The translations under genes and the position numbers were made by a program. Positions 2,050 to 63,954 of a stretch of 64,000 nt of DNA are shown here, in pieces. The stretch covers positions 29,707-93,706 of the forward strand of contig JAGVMV010000024.1 in the NCBI GenBank assembly GCA_020053595.1, written 5' to 3'. Position 1 is the stretch's first letter, and each line of letters opens with the position of its first letter. The notes beneath the pieces are model-generated. The model was not told the origin of the DNA. It worked only from the letters and a program-made list of their open reading frames with translations, and did no database searches. The stretch is from Thermoleophilia bacterium. GTDB lineage: Bacteria; Actinomycetota; Thermoleophilia; BMS3ABIN01.

Positions 2050-3155
2050 AAGATCTGAGCGGAAAAAATTTTATCGGCATCGATTCGGGCGCGGACGCCA
2101 TCCCCGCCCACGGTGGGCGCCGCCTGGATGCGGCGCGCCGTCATGGCATACCCAAGGAAGAACTGCTCGACTTCAGCGCCAGCATCAATCTGCTCGGTCC
2201 TTCACCGGCGGCGCTGGCGGCCGTCAGGACGGCCACGGTGGACATCCACTATTATCCGGATGAAAACGCCGACGGCTTTTCGCGCCTGGTGGCGAGCTAC
2301 CTGGGCGTCTTCCCGGATGAGGTCGTTCCCGGCAACGGCAGCATCGAGGTGATCTACTGGCTGGCCGTGGCGTTAAAACCACGTCGGGTGCTGATCGTCG
2401 AGCCGACTTTCTCCGAGTATCGCCGGGCCTGCGAGTCGGTTGGCGCCAGCTGTGACTCTTTTATGCTGGAAGAGGACGAGGACTTCGCTTTCGAAACCGC
2501 GCGGCTGCAACCCGATGGCTATGACCTGGTTTTCGTCTGTAATCCGAACAATCCCACCGGTTACCTGGCGCCGATCGAGGAAATAGCCGCTTTGTGGCAG
2601 CGATGCCGCCTGGCCGGGGCGGCCCTGGTGGTGGATGAGGCGTTCATCGATTTTTCCGGCCCCGAGCAGTCGATTCTTTCTCATGGCGTTTCCCAGGGAC
2701 TTTTCGTGGTGCGCTCATTCACCAAGTCGCACGCGCTGGCGGGATTGCGGCTCGGCTGCCTGGTGGCCGAGGCGAATTTCGCCTCGCGATTGCGGTCCCT
2801 GATGCCGCCCTGGAACGTCAACTCTTTCGCCCTGGCGGCGGGAGAGGCGTCGCTGTGCGACTGGGAATACATGCCGCACAGCCGTCGCCAGAACGCGTCG
2901 GCGCGGGCGCGGTTGTACGCCGACCTCGAGGCTATCCCGGGTATGGAGCCACTGCCTTCCGAGGCCAACTTTTTGCTCTGCCGCCTTGCCGGCGCCGGTT
3001 CGGCGGCTATAACCGAATGGCTGGGGAGCCAGGGTATCCTGGTGCGGGAATGCCGTTCATTTCCGGGCCTGGGCGACAGCTATATCCGCGTGGCGGTCCG
3101 TTCCGAACGGGATAACTACCAGCTTGTCTCGGCACTGAGAAAGGCGCTGAAATGA
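2046..3155 (+). CDS. cobD: L-threonine-O-3-phosphate decarboxylase (CobD/CobC; class I/II aminotransferase fold)
   Basis: N-terminal FIGIDSG...DFSASINLLGPSP and overall aminotransferase-like sequence. TTG start overlaps the upstream stop. B12-cluster context. Confidence 0.8.
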   Translation: MKDLSGKNFIGIDSGADAIPAHGGRRLDAARRHGIPKEELLDFSASINLLGPSPAALAAVRTATVDIHYYPDENADGFSRLVASYLGVFPDEVVPGNGSIEVIYWLAVALKPRRVLIVEPTFSEYRRACESVGASCDSFMLEEDEDFAFETARLQPDGYDLVFVCNPNNPTGYLAPIEEIAALWQRCRLAGAALVVDEAFIDFSGPEQSILSHGVSQGLFVVRSFTKSHALAGLRLGCLVAEANFASRLRSLMPPWNVNSFALAAGEASLCDWEYMPHSRRQNASARARLYADLEAIPGMEPLPSEANFLLCRLAGAGSAAITEWLGSQGILVRECRSFPGLGDSYIRVAVRSERDNYQLVSALRKALK

Positions 3156-3219
3156 TGGTGCCTGCAGGCGGAGAAATGCTTGCTCCAGCTGGCGCGGGCC
3201 GGCTTTGGGAGGCGCATCA

Positions 3220-5922: not shown

Positions 5923-5954
5923 CCAATCCACCAAACAAGGTCAGTGGGGCTTCC

Positions 5955-6100
5955 TGTTTTTAAATGGAAGCTTAAATGGGGCAAGTCCGGTGCAAGTCCG
6001 GCGCAGTCCCGCTACTGTAAGTGAGAACGGTGTTCAGGTCCGGCATTTGTCGACCGTACCCGTCTCTCACAAGCCAGAAAACCCGCCCCTGACCAGGATT
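5955..6100 (+). ncRNA. Cobalamin (adenosylcobalamin) riboswitch
   Basis: GGAAGC...GGTGCAAGTCCGGCGCAGTCCCGCTACTGTAAGTGAG core. Downstream B12-box-like AAGCCAGAAAACCCGCC. It sits in the 5' leader of the cbiM cobalt transporter gene. Confidence 0.75.
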
Positions 6101-6227
6101 CCGAGAACCTTCGCGAGAAAGGGGCAGGATTATGATGGCATTTCCATAGATAACCCTTTGTCCAGCTTCCAGGATGAAGGTTTTTTTCATTTTTCAGCAA
6201 TTATCTGAATCGCAGAAAGGATGCTCC

Positions 6228-11377: not shown

Positions 11378-12118
11378 ATGAAACCTGAACGGGAAGACAT
11401 CAGCGATGAGCCGGGCGCCATGAGCCGGGAACCGGGAACTCTATACGGAGTGGGCGTCGGACCGGGGGATCCCGGCCTGTTGACGCTCAAGGCCCTCGAG
11501 GTGATAAAACGCGTGGGTGCCGTGGCTTATCCGGTAAACCGGGAAGGCGCCGGCAGCCGCGCTTTCGAGACGGTGGCCGGCCATCTGCCGGAAGCGACCA
11601 TCCGCCTGCCGCTGCTGATGCCGATGACCCGTGACCAGGAGCGGCTCGAACAGGCCCACGCCGCCGCTGCCGAAACCGTGATCGCCGCCACCGCCGGTGG
11701 CATGGACATAGCCTATCTGTCCCTGGGTGACCCGCTTTTCTACAGCACTTTCGGCTACCTGGCGGAGCGTTTTCCCGGCCGGGTCGAGGTGGTCAGTGGC
11801 GTCACGGCGGCCAGTGCCATGGCCGCGGCTCTTGGCTTGCCTCTGGCAGCCGGAGACACGCCCACGGTGGTGGTCACCGGGCAGGCCCACGCGGCCCTGG
11901 AACAGGCTTTGGCGATGAGGGCTTCGGTGGTTATCATCAAACCGCGCTCTCTGTCGGAGGAGTCCCTGGAAATGCTGGACGCCAACGGTGTCTGGGGGCG
12001 CGCCCGCGGTGTAATCGAGCTGGGCGGCACCGGCGAGCGGGTTCTGGAGAAGCTGGACCGGGAGTCGGCGGCAACCCTGCCGTACTTTGCCGTACTCTGG
12101 ATCCAGCCGCCCGAATGA
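11378..12118 (+). CDS. cbiL: Cobalt-precorrin-2 C20-methyltransferase CbiL. An alternative start at 11420 is possible.
   Basis: LYGVGVGPGDPGLLTLKA motif of CobI/CbiL. Confidence 0.85.
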   Translation: MKPEREDISDEPGAMSREPGTLYGVGVGPGDPGLLTLKALEVIKRVGAVAYPVNREGAGSRAFETVAGHLPEATIRLPLLMPMTRDQERLEQAHAAAAETVIAATAGGMDIAYLSLGDPLFYSTFGYLAERFPGRVEVVSGVTAASAMAAALGLPLAAGDTPTVVVTGQAHAALEQALAMRASVVIIKPRSLSEESLEMLDANGVWGRARGVIELGGTGERVLEKLDRESAATLPYFAVLWIQPPE

Positions 12119-12157
12119 AAAAAACGCTAAAGCGAAATTCTTGCAGGAGATGAACAG

Positions 12158-27288: not shown

Positions 27289-27307
27289 CCACAAAGCAGT
27301 GATCATA

Positions 27308-27345
27308 AGAGCCGCGCCGCTGAAAGCGGCGCGGCTCTTATTCCT
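27308..27345. terminator. Bidirectional rho-independent terminator between convergent genes
   Basis: Perfect 13-bp stem AGAGCCGCGCCGC / GCGGCGCGGCTCT with a 5-nt loop and a T-rich tail. Confidence 0.7.
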
Positions 27346-28280: not shown

Positions 28281-28311
28281 AACCGGATAACCCCCGGCGC
28301 AATCACAATCG

Positions 28312-28764
28312 ATGAATCCTGATATTCCTCCAAGAACCCTGGTGCTGGACACCAGCGTCGTCGCCAAGTGGTTTCTGCCTGAGCCGCTCAGCACGGAAGC
28401 GGATAGCGTTCTCGAGGAAGTTCGTCTGGGAAAGACACAAGTGGCTTCACCGGATCTGATCGTTTATGAGTTAGCCAATATCCTCTGGCAACGCCAGAAG
28501 AAGGAAGAGATCAGCGGCAGGCAGGCCGCCGCGATCATGTCGGATTTCGAGCGTCTTCCAATTCAGCTGGTCCCGGGAGATGTCCTCGGGTCTCAAGCAC
28601 TGAAAATCGCGGGAAGGACGGGCTGCACTGCTTATGACGGAGCATTCATGGCATTGGCGTCCGGCCTCAATTGCACCCTGATTACCGCGGACCAGAGATT
28701 TATCAGTCTGATGACCGGCACAAGATTCGCAAAGCGGGTTGTGTGGCTGGGTGAGTGGAAATAA
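28312..28764 (+). CDS. vapC: PIN-domain toxin VapC
   Basis: LVLDTSVV start and the conserved acidic residues of the PIN fold. Paired with the upstream RHH antitoxin. Confidence 0.8.
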   Translation: MNPDIPPRTLVLDTSVVAKWFLPEPLSTEADSVLEEVRLGKTQVASPDLIVYELANILWQRQKKEEISGRQAAAIMSDFERLPIQLVPGDVLGSQALKIAGRTGCTAYDGAFMALASGLNCTLITADQRFISLMTGTRFAKRVVWLGEWK

Positions 28765-28834
28765 TCGCCTGTCTTTCCGGCCTGATAGCATGATCATGCA
28801 AGCCTGATAGAATAGTTTCCATGAAAGGACCTGC

Positions 28835-29059
28835 ATGCAAATGAGGGACATCAAACCCCGCCCCAACCATGCGAAGTACGTACAGATTCTGCGCGGGCTG
28901 ACCCCGGAGGAGCGCCTTTTCAAGGCTTTTGAAATCTCGGCGTTCTCCAGGGATCTCTTCATGTCCGGCCTTCGGAAAAGATTCCCCGACTTAACTGAAG
29001 CTGACAGAAAAGAAATCTACCTGAGGCGACTGGAAAAATGTCACAACAGGAATTACTAG
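28835..29059 (+). CDS. Small (74 aa) helical protein, candidate partner of the downstream nucleotidyltransferase
   Basis: AAAGGA RBS. Overlaps the downstream gene by 22 nt (translational coupling). C-terminal R-x4-H motif (RLEKCH) resembles a HEPN signature. Confidence 0.4.
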   Translation: MQMRDIKPRPNHAKYVQILRGLTPEERLFKAFEISAFSRDLFMSGLRKRFPDLTEADRKEIYLRRLEKCHNRNY

Positions 29060-29538
29060 CAAAGGTAGTTTCGGCTCTCAACCATGCGGGCATCGACTAT
29101 ATGGTGACCGGCTCCCTGGTTTCGAGTCTTCAGGGCGAGCCACGCTCAACCCACGACATTGATTTCGTCGTATCGGCAGGGCCGGAGATTGTCGGGGCGC
29201 TCGTCGAAGTATTCCCCCCTCCTGATTACTATCTTGACAGAAAAAGCATTACGGAAGCGGTCAGCAGGCAGGATATGTTCAACCTGATCGATGTGAAATC
29301 CGGTGATAAGGCTGATTTCTGGATCTTAACGGATGAACCGTTCGACCGGTCCCGCTTTGCTAGAAAATATGAAGAGAACGTGCTGGGTATGAAACTCAAG
29401 GTTTCCAGTCCCGAGGACACGATTCTCGCCAAGTTGAGATGGGCCGCGCTGTCCGGAGGAAGTGAAAAACAGTTCATTGACGCCTTGCGGGTCTATGAGG
29501 TGCAATCTGGCAAACTGGACATGGAGTACCTTTCGTAG
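29038..29538 (+). CDS. Minimal nucleotidyltransferase (pol-beta superfamily) protein
   Basis: TGSLVSSLQGEPRSTHDIDFVV fits the GS-x(9-13)-DxD NTase motif. Confidence 0.55.
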   Translation: MSQQELLAKVVSALNHAGIDYMVTGSLVSSLQGEPRSTHDIDFVVSAGPEIVGALVEVFPPPDYYLDRKSITEAVSRQDMFNLIDVKSGDKADFWILTDEPFDRSRFARKYEENVLGMKLKVSSPEDTILAKLRWAALSGGSEKQFIDALRVYEVQSGKLDMEYLS

Positions 29539-29633
29539 AGCACCCAGGGATTCTTAACTCTTCTGACGTAAGACGGCTGTCTTTGAATCTTGCATACAGG
29601 TACGTGCTGGTCCTTCTTGACGGTAGCAGTTGC

Positions 29634-29822
29634 TTACTTGGCCGGTGGAACTCCGAGGTCTCTGCAGATTTTCTTCGCCAGGATATCCTGAATCTCTCGA
29701 TGCCTGGGAATCGCTGAACGTTTGTTTAAGTCCGGGTTGTGCCACCAGGAATGTCTACCGCCTTCTCTTAATTGCTCGCATCCGTTTGCTATTAAGTGCC
29801 GGATCAGTGCATCCCTTTTCAT
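29634..29822 (-). CDS. hicA: HicA-family mRNA interferase toxin
   Basis: 62-aa protein ALIRHLIANGCEQLREGGRHSWWHNP... typical of HicA (YcfA-like). Confidence 0.8.
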   Translation of the reverse strand: MKRDALIRHLIANGCEQLREGGRHSWWHNPDLNKRSAIPRHREIQDILAKKICRDLGVPPAK

Positions 29823-30031
29823 ACAGCAATCTGTTCTTCTTCGTAATCCTCTCCGGCTGCGGACACGGCATCCTGGCGATTAAAATCAAGCGCTTCTTTC
29901 AACGCCTCTTTCAAACTTTCAACCAATTCGGGTCTCGTCGACTCCTGGCAGTTCACACCGGGAACTTCTTCCATCCACCCTATCCACCAGCTCTCCGTTT
30001 TTTTGATTACAGCAGTATATTGGTTATCCAT
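29819..30031 (-). CDS. hicB: HicB-like antitoxin (UPF0150 family)
   Basis: YTAVIKKTESWWIGWMEEVPGVNCQESTRPELVESLKEAL matches the UPF0150/HicB N-terminal domain. Overlaps hicA by 4 nt. Confidence 0.7.
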   Translation of the reverse strand: MDNQYTAVIKKTESWWIGWMEEVPGVNCQESTRPELVESLKEALKEALDFNRQDAVSAAGEDYEEEQIAV

Positions 30032-30267
30032 GATGTTTTCCTCGCTTCATCCGGGATTGATGCCTCTAATAAACCTCATGATTATTAATTCTAAAGAGAT
30101 TAATCACTTTTGGCTATAGAGATTGATGCAATTCCCCCTCATAAATCTCCTTGCGGGTCTTATCCCTCAGCATCACGAAGTCTTGGTCAAAAGGCGGAGA
30201 GACAACCGACGACAACCTTGAAACCAAGTGCAAACAATGCAACCTTGGCAAGGGAAACGCATTTAAT

Positions 30268-30595
<328 letters not shown>

Positions 30596-30603
30596 GGCTG
30601 GCG

Positions 30604-30657
30604 GATGCGGTTCAAGATCGACGAGAACCTTCCCGAAGACGTGGCATCGGTCCAATA
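30604..30657 (+). pseudogene. Truncated DUF5615 (PIN-like, partner of DUF433) gene remnant
   Basis: MRFKIDENLPEDVASVQ-stop. Only the first 17 codons of the usual ~110-aa DUF5615 toxin remain. Confidence 0.5.
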
Positions 30658-30659
30658 GA

Positions 30660-30749
30660 GCTGCGCCCGATGAAATAAAAAAGCTTGTCGAACTGGGTGT
30701 TATAAAGCAAAAGGGGAGTGGACGGAGTACCCAATACGAACTGGCGTAG
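30660..30749 (+). pseudogene. C-terminal fragment of a RecG-like/AAA-HTH (AlbA_2/HATPase_c_4 family) protein
   Basis: ...PDEIKKLVELGVIKQKGSGRSTQYELA-stop resembles the conserved C-terminal wHTH tail of that family. No N-terminal part is present. Confidence 0.35.
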
Positions 30750-30773
30750 CCGTTCACGATTAAGTTCACGAAT

Positions 30774-31048
30774 AGGTTCACGAATAATGACTCCGGACTC
30801 ACCAAACGCGCCAGTTGTCACACTTTCCGCCACTCATTTGCCACGCATCTGCTCGAAAACGGCTACGACATCCGCACCATCCAGGAACTGCTGGGACACA
30901 AGGACATAAAATTACCATGATTTATACCCATGTACTCAATCAGGGTGGGCAAGGCGTCCAGAGTCCAATTGACAAGTTGCCTCGGCGATGGACGATTAAC
31001 CGGATCAATCTAAACCGCCAGCTTAGAACCTGTTCTTCCTGCAATTGT
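30774..31048 (+). pseudogene. intI: Integron-type tyrosine recombinase (IntI/XerD-like) gene: C-terminal ~55-codon fragment, frameshifted
   Basis: ...[36 protein letters not shown], then a frameshift, then [22 protein letters not shown] in the other frame. This is the hallmark C-terminal catalytic region with the Tyr box of integron integrases. No N-terminal 300 codons are present. Confidence 0.7.
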
Positions 31049-31130
31049 TGGAATATTGTGTGAAGGGATAGGGGTTTATACTGCAGAATATTCAGTGTTG
31101 GGGGTTGTTATATGGATACGTATAAACACT

Positions 31131-31137
31131 GTTAGGC
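31131..31137 (+). other. GTTAGGC core recombination site (R'-type) forming the 5' boundary of the exonuclease cassette
   Basis: Exact GTTRRRY consensus, preceded by a 7-bp stem CAGTGTT/AACACTG. It lies 32 bp upstream of the cassette ORF. Confidence 0.5.
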
Positions 31138-31168
31138 ACTTTGTCAGACCAGCTTCCGAGGTAGAGCA

Positions 31169-32440
31169 ATGTCACGGTCCCTGATCGCAGGTCCCATAGG
31201 CGTGATCGACGTGGAGACGACGGGGTTGTTCCCGTCCCGGCATGATCGCGTGGTAGAGGTGGCTGCCGTTGTTGTGGGAGCTGACGGGCGCATTGAACGC
31301 GAGTTCGTATCGCTGGTGAACCCAGCTCGGGACATCGGGCCGAGCAGCATCCACGGTTTGACCTCGGAAGATATTCTCCACGCGCCGCAGTTTGCAGAGA
31401 TCGCAGCACTACTATTGGACGTGCTGAGTGGCACGGTGGCGATAGCCGCTCACAACGTTCGATTCGACCGCCAGTTCTTGGAGAGCGAATTCTCACGGCT
31501 GGAGTGCCAGTTACCGGACTGTTTCAGCATTTGCACAATGCAGCTGGCGGGGGGCGGGAGACTAGCGGACTGTTGTCGTGACTATGGAATCTCACCAGAA
31601 GGCGATGCTCATCACGCCCTCGCCGATACTCATGCCGCTGCTCTGCTACTGACCTGCCTTCTCGCCGACCAGCCTCGCACGGTTCAGAAGCTCAGCAAAC
31701 TTGCGCCGGTTCAGTGGCCGACCGTTCCCCGCACGATGAAGCAACCCGTCACGCGCGATGAGTCACGCCGTCGCCAAACTGAACCGCCCACATTCTTGCA
31801 GTATCTTCTCGAACGAATGCATGGTCACGGATTTCCGGACGCCACCGACGGGGCGGTTATGGCTTACGTGGCGTTGCTTGATCGCTTCCTGGAAGATCGT
31901 CATGTGGACGACTCTGAAGCCGATGCACTCGTGGAAACGGCTACAAAATGGGGCCTGAGCGGGGACCAGATATCCCTTGCCCACCGTGACTATCTGAATC
32001 AATTGGCAATTGCTGCAGTAGCCGACGGAATCGTCACGGACGCGGAACGACGGGACCTGAAGCTTGTCGCGCACCTGCTGGGCCAGGAGAAACGCGACTT
32101 GGACGAGATACTCAGTGAAGCTGCTGCGAAGGTGTGCGAGACACATCCCGATCCGGCCACGGCCAAACCCGCCGAGGAGAGCCTGATCGGGATGCGCGTT
32201 TGTTTCACAGGGGAGCTACAGTGCCATCATGACGGAGAGATGATTTCGCGCGAGTTGGCCGAAGAGCTCGCCAGTAGAGCCGGGCTTGTTGTGGCGGACT
32301 CTGTCACCAAGAAGCTCGATCTTCTTGTATTGGCCGACCCGCACACACAGTCTGGAAAGGCCAAAAAGGCCCGGCAGTATGGCATTCGGATCATGCACGA
32401 GCCCGTGTTCTGGAAGGCTATCGGCGTGAATGTGGAATGA
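31169..32440 (+). CDS. Cassette-encoded DEDDh 3'-5' exonuclease (DnaQ-like) fused to a TerB-like helical domain and a C-terminal BRCT domain
   Basis: Exo I IDVETTG, Exo II AHNVRFDRQFL, Exo III HHALADTHAAAL. The central helical region is TerB-like by composition. C-terminal GMRVCFTGEL...LLVLADP...SGKAKKARQYGIRIM is BRCT-like. Confidence 0.8.
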   Translation: MSRSLIAGPIGVIDVETTGLFPSRHDRVVEVAAVVVGADGRIEREFVSLVNPARDIGPSSIHGLTSEDILHAPQFAEIAALLLDVLSGTVAIAAHNVRFDRQFLESEFSRLECQLPDCFSICTMQLAGGGRLADCCRDYGISPEGDAHHALADTHAAALLLTCLLADQPRTVQKLSKLAPVQWPTVPRTMKQPVTRDESRRRQTEPPTFLQYLLERMHGHGFPDATDGAVMAYVALLDRFLEDRHVDDSEADALVETATKWGLSGDQISLAHRDYLNQLAIAAVADGIVTDAERRDLKLVAHLLGQEKRDLDEILSEAAAKVCETHPDPATAKPAEESLIGMRVCFTGELQCHHDGEMISRELAEELASRAGLVVADSVTKKLDLLVLADPHTQSGKAKKARQYGIRIMHEPVFWKAIGVNVE

Positions 32441-32472: not shown

Positions 32473-32570
32473 GCCTAACAAAACGCTCACCTGCCGCGGC
32501 CCGCATTGCGTTCCTCGGGGTTCGACACCCCCTTGCACCGGGCCGCGGCAGGTGAGCGCCAACGTTAGGC
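32473..32570 (+). other. attC recombination site (98 bp): R'' GCCTAAC, imperfect inverted repeats L''/L', R' GTTAGGC
   Basis: GCCTAAC-AAAACGCTCACCTGCCGCGGCCCG ... CGGGCCGCGGCAGGTGAGCGCCAAC-GTTAGGC. One extrahelical base asymmetry between the arms. Located 33 bp after the cassette ORF stop. Confidence 0.7.
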
Positions 32571-35781: not shown

Positions 35782-36576
35782 TTGGACGACCAGGATATTC
35801 AGGAACCGGAATCAGAAGATGAAGAGCTGATGGATGACCTCGAAATGGCGGAGGCTGATAGCCCGGCCGCGGTAACTGCCGGTGCCCCGGACTTCGAAAC
35901 TGAATATGTAGAAGAAGCTGACGAAACAGCCGCCGATATGACGGCAGAAGAAACTGCTGATGAACCTGCACTGGAAGCCTTTGCCGCGCAAGCGCCCGCG
36001 CCTGACACCGCCGACATCATCCGCGATATCGAGGCGATCCTTTTCATCGCCCCGGATCCGGTCAGCCTCGAAGTCCTCGCGGAGGTGACCAGCACTGAAG
36101 GCGAAGCCCTGGCCCACGCGGTCGAATCCGTGCGCGAGAAATATTCAGACCCTGATGGCGGCATCATCTTCGCCGAGATAGCCGGCGGTTACACCTTCCG
36201 CACCGGCGACTTCGCCCGCGAGGCGGTCGAGCGTTTCTGCCGCCGTCCTGTGGATTATTCCCTGTCGCCTGCGGCAATGGAGACGCTGGCCATCGTTGCC
36301 TACCTGCAGCCGATCACCCGGCCCGAGATCGCCCGCATTCGCGGCGTCGGCGCCGACACGGTGGTCGCCAACCTGCTGGACAAGGGGCTGGTGGCGGAAG
36401 CCGGGCGCGCCCAGCAGACGGGAGCCGTCAAGTACCGCACGACGGAGGCGTTCGAGAAGCTGTTCGGGCTGGCTGAGATGGCCGATCTGCCTTCGCTGGA
36501 AGGCTTCGAGGCTACGGCGGCAGACGTCGAGGAACTGCGCGAAAAGCTGCATTTGGCCGCGGACAAACGGCAGTAA
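35782..36576 (+). CDS. scpB: Segregation and condensation protein B with an acidic N-terminal extension
   Basis: IEAILFIAPDPVSLEVLAEV...wHTH repeats of ScpB. The first ~75 aa are D/E-rich. Confidence 0.85.
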   Translation: MDDQDIQEPESEDEELMDDLEMAEADSPAAVTAGAPDFETEYVEEADETAADMTAEETADEPALEAFAAQAPAPDTADIIRDIEAILFIAPDPVSLEVLAEVTSTEGEALAHAVESVREKYSDPDGGIIFAEIAGGYTFRTGDFAREAVERFCRRPVDYSLSPAAMETLAIVAYLQPITRPEIARIRGVGADTVVANLLDKGLVAEAGRAQQTGAVKYRTTEAFEKLFGLAEMADLPSLEGFEATAADVEELREKLHLAADKRQ

Positions 36577-36582
36577 GTTTGT

Positions 36583-36662
36583 GGTGGCCGGGACGGGATG
36601 TTCCCGCCTCCACTTGGGTCTTCGACAGACGTTGCGGCGGAAACATCCCGTCCCGGCCATGA
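36583..36662 (+). repeat. Intergenic ~80-nt long-hairpin repeat element, copy 1
   Basis: GGCCGGGACGGGATGTTCCCGCC-TCCACTTGGGTCTTCGACAGACGTTGC-GGCGGAAACATCCCGTCCCGGCC. A second copy lies at 63663-63740 with compensatory changes in the stem. Confidence 0.7.
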
Positions 36663-36694
36663 ACTTTTTTCCCGTTTGAGAGGCTAGCTTTATC

Positions 36695-41625: not shown

Positions 41626-41709
41626 AGCGCGGGCTTAATCAGCCCGTTCTGGCATCCTGAGCCACCCGGCAGCGGCAGCTGGGGAGTTGTCTGCCGGGTG
41701 GCTGAGTTT

Positions 41710-41743
41710 GGCCCGGGCCGTGGCAAGCGGTCCGGGTTTTTTC
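41710..41743 (+). terminator. Rho-independent terminator, preceded by an additional perfect 12-bp hairpin at 41661-41702
   Basis: GGCCCGGGCCG...CGGTCCGGG followed by TTTTTTC. Upstream hairpin GCCACCCGGCAG / CTGCCGGGTGGC. Confidence 0.55.
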
Positions 41744-55844: not shown

Positions 55845-55878
55845 CCCGGGAAACCCCAGGGGACACATTACTGAATCC

Positions 55879-63607: not shown

Positions 63608-63662
63608 AGGGACGTACGTTTCCTATGTTTCCTAATTACGAAAAAAGAGCCAGGTAGATTGT

Positions 63663-63740
63663 GGCGGCCGGGATGGGATTTTCCCGCCTCCACTAGGGTC
63701 TTCGACAGACGTTACGGCGGAAAAATCCCATCCCGGCTGG
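63663..63740 (+). repeat. Intergenic ~80-nt long-hairpin repeat element, copy 2
   Basis: GGCCGGGATGGGATTTTCCCGCC-TCCACTAGGGTCTTCGACAGACGTTAC-GGCGGAAAAATCCCATCCCGGC. Same family as 36583-36662. Confidence 0.7.
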
Positions 63741-63954
63741 AGTTGCCCTTTGCCTGGGCGGGGAAAAAAGAGAGACGTTCTTTTCCTAACGGTACTAATT
63801 AATGAAGCCCAACATCTTGTATTTGTATTGAGCGGTTGGTTCGAACCCGGTTTGGTCCACCAAACTAGTCTCATTTGAACTTTTTGAGAGTAGTGCATGA
63901 AACAGATCGGTGTACTCGACATCGATTTCACCGTTTCTTACGAGGATTTTTTCA

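Follow-up and report, generated by a model that had tools for sequence, protein, structure and literature searches.

A low-copy family of palindromic hairpin elements with an invariant tip in one clade of uncultured Actinomycetota

We describe a low-copy family of palindromic elements of 75-95 nt that is confined to one clade of uncultured Actinomycetota, the MAGs of which carry the NCBI label 'Thermoleophilia bacterium'. Every copy folds as a single long, irregular hairpin with three parts, a lower stem, a sub-apical helix and a tip, and both the hairpin shape and the 11-base tip are maintained by selection. The element has spread to at least six intergenic sites, is vertically inherited and under purifying selection wherever it occurs, and some lineages have lost it by deletion. 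It belongs to the familiar general class of small intergenic palindromic repeats.

Two copies lie in the window, that is, the whole 64-kb stretch of DNA analyzed, and are given here on the + strand. The hairpin of copy 1 (36585-36659) is found 3' of scpB (PF04079, 100% match P0001) and that of copy 2 (63666-63738) 3' of uvrB (match P0121); an exact-product look-up of the window RluB returned no record. Both hairpins are about 75 nt long. The sequence-only reading had placed two hairpins after scpB and uvrB, with a 27-nt apex and arms of about 23 nt, and its coordinates were confirmed when read again. Indeed, a 37-nt degenerate pattern has exactly two sites in the window, which are the two copies, for an expected number of 0.00. 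In copy 1, the 5' flank or 'leader' GTTTGTGG (36577-36584) comes right behind the scpB stop codon TAA (36574-36576), and a TTGTGG-like motif resembling it stands in front of most family copies. Then follow the 5' arm TGGCCGGGACGGGATGTTCCCGCC (36585-36608), the 27-nt apical module TCCACTTGGGTCTTCGACAGACGTTGC (36609-36635), the 3' arm GGCGGAAACATCCCGTCCCGGCCA (36636-36659) and a T-rich tail (36660-36678) that ends in a second GTTTG (36674-36678). The apical module combines irregular sub-apical pairs with the invariant core GGTCTTCGACA (36617-36627), which lends itself to a UCGAC pentaloop with U-A as the closing pair. Copy 2 consists of a 5' arm (63666-63688), the apical module TCCACTAGGGTCTTCGACAGACGTTAC (63689-63715, with the invariant core at 63697-63707) and a 3' arm (63716-63738), G63666 and T63738 forming a G.U pair. 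On the + strand each stem contains a conserved C.A mismatch, C36603.A36641 in copy 1 and C63683.A63721 in copy 2, which would read as a U.G wobble on the - strand. Folding gives -57.5 kcal/mol for copy 1 (z -7.3 versus shuffles) and -49.5 kcal/mol for copy 2 (z -5.5 versus shuffles). The two arm differences between the copies, described earlier as mirrored on the opposite arm, are indeed a C-G to T-A and a G-C to T-A change.

The family comprises six independent loci and 12 sequences, drawn from the window and from public MAGs and metagenomes. Exact-pattern scans recovered the apex in one MAG only (JAENWV01, 'Thermoleophilia bacterium', three loci) and in five metagenome contigs; seven more 18-mer apex matches, without arms, were set aside as chance. 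Further copies were gained from contigs reached via ScpB and UvrB homologues, and two covariance models run with filters off on ~330 kb of clade DNA yielded a single additional locus, in L022. Every copy is intergenic. The loci, whose flanking genes were checked by Pfam, are scpB|rluB (window, L008, L018 and L024), the 3' end of uvrB (window, L003, L014, L027 and L025), RNase Y|miaB-like (L002 and L010), argG|argH (L001 and L007), where the element is antisense to both genes, PHP-domain gene|small GTPase (L011), where the flanking genes are convergent, and scpA|scpB (L022 only).

The lower stem counts 22-31 bp; its sequence is locus-specific and its complementarity is kept. The arms of L011 have little in common with those of the other loci and yet pair perfectly. 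In the 12-sequence alignment 97% of the cells are paired, and double compensatory changes affect 18 of the 30 base pairs. The covariation score is 0.422 versus 0.135 +/- 0.017 in shuffles, none of which reached it (0/500). When the 3' partner was slid as a control, at most 7 pairs were obtained and pairing went down to 38-51%. Thus, the folded structure first proposed from two covarying pairs is upheld once the six loci are aligned.

The sub-apical helix also covaries, in L022 (A-U to G-C and C-G to U-A), in L018 and in L011. The 27-nt segment that had been taken for a conserved loop is therefore partly helical, and its invariance is limited to the 11-nt core, identical in 12/12 sequences; nothing else in the element is invariant. 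This tip, GGUCUUCGACA, contains a core that was found only inside elements in the clade sequence examined. Besides the pentaloop, the core can be drawn as a UUCGACA heptaloop. The latter matches by eye the T-loop consensus U-U-C-R-A-N-N of the tRNA T-arm, which we take as a lead only. The closing pair is C-G/U-A and not G53-C61, a tRNA-like body is absent and ARAGORN is negative. That the conserved apex has a specific binding partner, as was suggested from the two window copies, stays plausible given that no sequence of the 12 departs from the 11-nt core, and we speak of a putative partner. The C.A mismatch is seen at five of the six loci. It is replaced by a Watson-Crick pair in L002, L025 and probably L024, and is therefore not essential.

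The short tip is not found everywhere in the same form. At the scpB site of L018 (GCA_016235065.1, 10891-10962) it is replaced by an unrelated structured domain on a retained lower stem, the apex being of 72 nt versus 27. In the same assembly, the copy at uvrB still has the short tip, with 5/27 positions changed. The 72-nt apex was also considered as a separate repeat, of which no second copy was found.

Conservation of orthologous copies shows purifying selection at individual loci. At uvrB, the window and L025 elements are identical at 64/73 positions (88%), compared with 160/302 fourfold sites (53%) and 49% over the next 60 nt. At scpB, the arms of the window and L018 copies are 91-92% identical, for 50% at fourfold sites and 65% in the downstream spacer. 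Compared with the window, the element has 83/83 identical positions in L008 (93.3% overall) and one difference in 73 nt in L027 (fourfold sites 83%). This is in line with the earlier claim that the copies reflect selection and not a recent duplication. Neither recent duplication nor neutral palindrome self-correction explains the conservation. The element thus displays what is generally expected of a structured hairpin under selection, namely covariation for one fold and conservation above neutral. Since pairing is under selection locus by locus, the folded form is likely to have a role at the level of the host.

The family also behaves as a dispensable, once-mobile repeat. The scpB|rluB site is empty in L016, L022 and L029, with remnants in L020 (a 12-nt exact piece of the 3' arm) and L023 (a more diverged version), and the uvrB site is empty in L026 and L028. 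L016 and L026 are the same contig, of GCA_054606475.1. Both window-locus copies are absent from this genome, although its distance from the window equals that of L027, a carrier (fourfold sites 83% identical for each). One deeper relative also lacks the element at both window loci. Conversely, the scpA|scpB site occupied in L022 is empty in all other genomes. Such polymorphism of presence and absence, together with one lineage-specific insertion, makes the element behave as an interspersed repeat.

The empty alleles, in which the genes are 12-22 nt apart, give some information on the borders. The L016 allele has neither the hairpin nor the T-rich tail (36660-36678 in the window) and retains ...CCGTGG, so the leader may be target sequence and not part of the element. 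Filled alleles at scpB, uvrB and rny read (G)TTTG[TGG...hairpin...tail-TTTG], a pattern not seen at L011 and L022, and the tails from the hairpin to the second TTTG are of unrelated sequence between loci. Two origins account equally well for the TTTG pattern, namely insertion beside a short target that was duplicated, and slippage deletion, stimulated by the hairpin, with short direct repeats as endpoints. The sequence-only reading had opposed its folded structure to membership of a known IS or MITE. The behavior of an interspersed repeat was indeed found; phage, plasmid and viral collections gave no IS or MITE match, and conserved terminal inverted repeats and clear target-site duplications were not demonstrated. 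The MITE definition does not apply, as arms from different loci can disagree at most of their positions (L011 versus the others) and no related IS was matched in these collections.

One may wonder whether the element is a non-autonomous mobile single-stranded DNA hairpin, like REP/RAYT sequences or the ends of IS200/IS605. In such a case, a trans-encoded enzyme, of HUH/Y1 type or other, would read the hairpin, the mismatch, the tip or the 5' flank and cut beside a short target, for instance TTTG, and effects on RNA would be incidental. We hold this to be a serious possibility, albeit a rather unlikely one. It is supported by the unrelated loci that host copies, the new insertion specific to L022, the empty alleles at both window loci and the TTTG pattern of the filled ones, the recurrent TTGTGG-like flank, the mismatch at five of six loci, the lack of a G.U strand bias and an apex that is kept whatever the direction of transcription, as in the argG-argH copy. 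However, locus-specific arms at 88-92% identity versus ~50% at synonymous sites are not what one expects from selfish mobility on its own or from self-correction of palindromes. Moreover, there is a single hairpin instead of two ends, the tails are unlike between loci, L011 and L022 depart from the TTTG pattern, and copies are few (at most three with an exact apex per MAG, two in the window). The ~330 kb of clade DNA examined showed no transposase, and the Pfam tables of the clade loci examined contain no RAYT (Y1 transposase) gene.

REP/REPIN sequences are imperfect palindromes of 20-40 nt with a conserved 5' GTAG, present in tens to hundreds of copies, often as inverted pairs, with a RAYT transposase. 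The element resembles them as an extragenic palindrome behind a stop codon with a conserved imperfection, a short 5' flank and a long vertical persistence. However, it falls outside the REP definition by its length of 75-95 nt, its single and few copies and the lack of a fixed GTAG motif: the 5' flank is TTGTGG-like, and GTAG or GTAA occurs only where the stop codon provides it. ERIC/IRU of Enterobacteria and Correia/NEMIS of Neisseria are imperfect palindromes of ~100 nt in transcribed intergenic regions of operons, patchy among relatives, which form long RNA hairpins that can be processed or can alter mRNA stability. What they conserve is their terminal inverted repeats. Our element is alike in palindrome size, intergenic operon location, patchy presence and long RNA hairpin fold, but shows no sequence similarity to them, has few copies, and keeps its tip invariant with arms that are locus-specific and covary. 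The conservation pattern of the classical palindromic repeats is thus inverted, the tip being fixed and the arms free to covary, which makes the family a clean case for the question of RNA-read versus single-stranded DNA-read hairpins.

The Rfam scan proposed with the sequence-only reading was carried out with Rfam 15 at the gathering threshold on the window and nine loci, and no family matched at any copy. A relaxed search (E up to 10) returned only generic miRNA-precursor hairpin models, at 15-37 bits versus thresholds of 71-90. Nothing similar to the element was found in phage, plasmid and viral-contig collections, and a literature search for a described equivalent gave nothing relevant. 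Likenesses of the arms or apex to parS, KOPS, SOS boxes and the anti-Shine-Dalgarno sequence were dropped, no match being seen by eye. The family adds a well-supported structured element, with 18 covarying pairs and clear purifying selection, in an uncultured lineage of actinobacteria that has received little study. Its practical value is that of an item for annotation and a candidate Rfam motif; to speak of a new mechanism would require a demonstrated partner or effect.

As to function, we favor, with a probability of about 0.42, a stem-loop carried in operon mRNAs that would affect RNA processing or stability and whose tip would be bound by a specific factor; we infer both its transcription and its RNA effect. 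The element would be transcribed as part of an operon or 3'-UTR mRNA, in keeping with the co-orientation of four of the five orientable copies with their flanking genes, and, as an intercistronic or 3' stem-loop, would set boundaries of RNA processing or decay. A stem of more than 20 bp has the size of an RNase III substrate or of a block to 3' exonucleases. The invariant tip would be the docking site of a specific trans-acting factor. The element is not a canonical intrinsic terminator.

Its location is relevant in this respect. Three copies lie within short-spaced co-oriented housekeeping pairs resembling operons (scpA-scpB, scpB-rluB and argG-argH), where a strong terminator would be harmful. 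These positions and the missing U-tract argue against termination. The earlier suggestion of a terminator or small RNA at gene 3' ends does not hold, given three operon-internal copies, one of them antisense, no adjacent U-tract and no sigma-70-like promoter found at either window copy. The related statement that no terminator-type U-tract is present has to be amended: no run of T follows copy 2 and no canonical terminator was called, but a T6 run (36665-36670) starts 6 nt past the stem of copy 1. A terminator that is independent of a U-tract, factor-assisted or bidirectional could still be imagined from the strong GC-rich hairpin ~10 nt or less from stop codons, the L011 copy between convergent genes and the T-rich tails 6-14 nt downstream at some loci. 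We consider it very improbable. Indeed, a scan for intrinsic terminators (GC-rich stem with a U-tract 0-2 nt behind) called no site at either window copy, canonical terminators made of a hairpin and a T-run are present elsewhere in the genome, three copies lie in short-spaced operon-like pairs, the genes of empty alleles being 12-22 nt apart, and termination does not require an invariant 11-nt tip. As separate observations, the window contains an ordinary hairpin with a perfect 17-bp stem and a 3-nt loop (27305-27341), and a tandem hairpin (41657-41740) with a canonical terminator at its end (CCCGG...CCGGG, then TTTTTT), from which it follows that this genome uses standard intrinsic terminators.

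Several observations count against the RNA reading. The argG-argH copy is antisense to an apparent operon and its apex is still perfect, which is easier to reconcile with DNA-level recognition, or with transcription of its own, than with an mRNA-borne function. Of the orientable copies, four are co-oriented with their flanking genes and one is antisense, and the sixth copy of the family lies between convergent genes; this bias is not significant. Mismatch types show no strand asymmetry (by eye, ~6 G.U on the + strand versus 4-5 A.C), and for most copies the - strand gives the slightly more stable fold. Transversions make up many of the compensated changes, and they arise readily when DNA is corrected on a hairpin template. 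Together with the dispensability of the element, these points weaken our preferred stem-loop, and the perfect antisense apex, the lack of G.U/A.C bias, the - strand stability and the transversions keep single-stranded DNA models alive.

Among the latter, a host site at the DNA level could consist of an extruded or single-stranded hairpin bound, independently of transcription, by a chromosomal protein involved in replication, repair or chromosome organization. Such a site would account for purifying selection on arms and apex alike, for the apex of the antisense copy and for the strand-symmetric mismatches. It nevertheless appears distinctly unlikely, as the element is dispensable in close relatives and we know of no system with 5-10 such host DNA sites; orientation relative to replication, estimated by GC skew, was noisy, inconsistent and uninformative. 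A more daring reading would see in the invariant T-loop-like tip on its long helix a dock for a trans-acting factor, for instance a tRNA-elbow-reading enzyme such as RNase P, a T-arm-modifying enzyme or a lineage-specific hairpin-binding protein. The copies would then form a so far undescribed, host-domesticated 'hairpin regulon' punctuating housekeeping operons, the set being gained and lost together, at which the double absence in GCA_054606475.1 hints. We regard this as a speculation with a low chance of being right.

A parallel can also be drawn with integron attC sites, which are structure-defined single-stranded DNA hairpins of similar size, and the window does contain a remnant of an integron upstream of trpS (32473-32570, 30804-30985 and ~28300-32440). 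A third hairpin at 32473-32570, the sole match of an attC box scan, has perfect boxes GCCTAAC...GTTAGGC and a 20-bp perfect inner stem. It comes after a cassette-like ORF for a DnaQ-like exonuclease/BRCT protein, and the adjoining tyrosine recombinase is a frameshifted C-terminal fragment (PF00589, E = 1.3e-15). At the equivalent place in L016, the integrase is intact and accompanied by an attC-like site (844-1662 and 3110-3197). The covariance model of the family does score the third hairpin (32480-32562), at 23.5 bits on the + strand and 22.1 on the - strand, but in view of the attC boxes, the integrase fragment and this intact counterpart we treat it as an integron attC-like site and not as a family member. 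Its tip shares TTCGACA with the family, which could suggest that the whole family is made of attC sites or derivatives. This idea is largely refuted. In attC sites the outer R and L boxes are conserved and the tip is variable, whereas the family conserves its tip and has neither R'' (RYYYAAC) nor R' (GTTRRRY) boxes. In copy 1 the outermost pairs even run with opposite polarity (AAGTT...AACTT). In addition, the copies stand among housekeeping genes and not in cassette arrays, and the apex alignment is weak (p ~0.04). Small ORFs upstream in the integron remnant resemble, on visual inspection, genes of toxin-antitoxin systems (PIN-, HicA/HicB- and DUF433-like).

Other features were noticed around uvrB. 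A second small repeat, GGGACGTNNGTTTCCTATGTTTCCTAA, occurs in the window (63609-63635), L014 (349-375), L027 (~11988-12014), L022 (2204-2230) and L023 (4208-4234 and 4274-4300), where the two are inverted relative to each other and pair perfectly over 31 bp. The window repeat is part of a ~52-nt stretch, bounded by TAGA/TAGA and missing from L003, that separates the uvrB stop codon from copy 2 of the hairpin, and a degenerate copy is present at 63771-63800. Further downstream of uvrB, a conserved block, ...GTTGG TTCGAAC CCGGT TTGGTCC A CCA, is found in the window (63830-63870), L025 (~12103-12125), L026 (~11993-12025 and 12086-12103), L027 (12225-12253) and L003 (897-920), with or without the hairpin. 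Its parts are spaced exactly as in the 3' half of a tRNA (T-arm, acceptor strand, discriminator and CCA), but neither ARAGORN nor Rfam calls a tRNA there. As the genes downstream of the block vary from genome to genome, the block may represent a former integration (att) site.

A third intergenic motif, AGGGACACATTACTTAATTG, also interspersed, could be a regulatory or promoter-type site. It often forms tandem pairs upstream of genes in relatives, namely L018 (1183-1201 and 9937-9960), L025 (3459, 3487 and 9895), L020 (1476 and 9926), L023 (958 and 9926) and L022 (9866), and the window has only a 13-nt partial match (55860-55872). Finally, two riboswitches were recognized, a cobalamin riboswitch in the window (5928-6104, + strand, 55.8 bits) and a c-di-GMP-I-GGC riboswitch in L027 (20141-20217, - strand, 68.5 bits).
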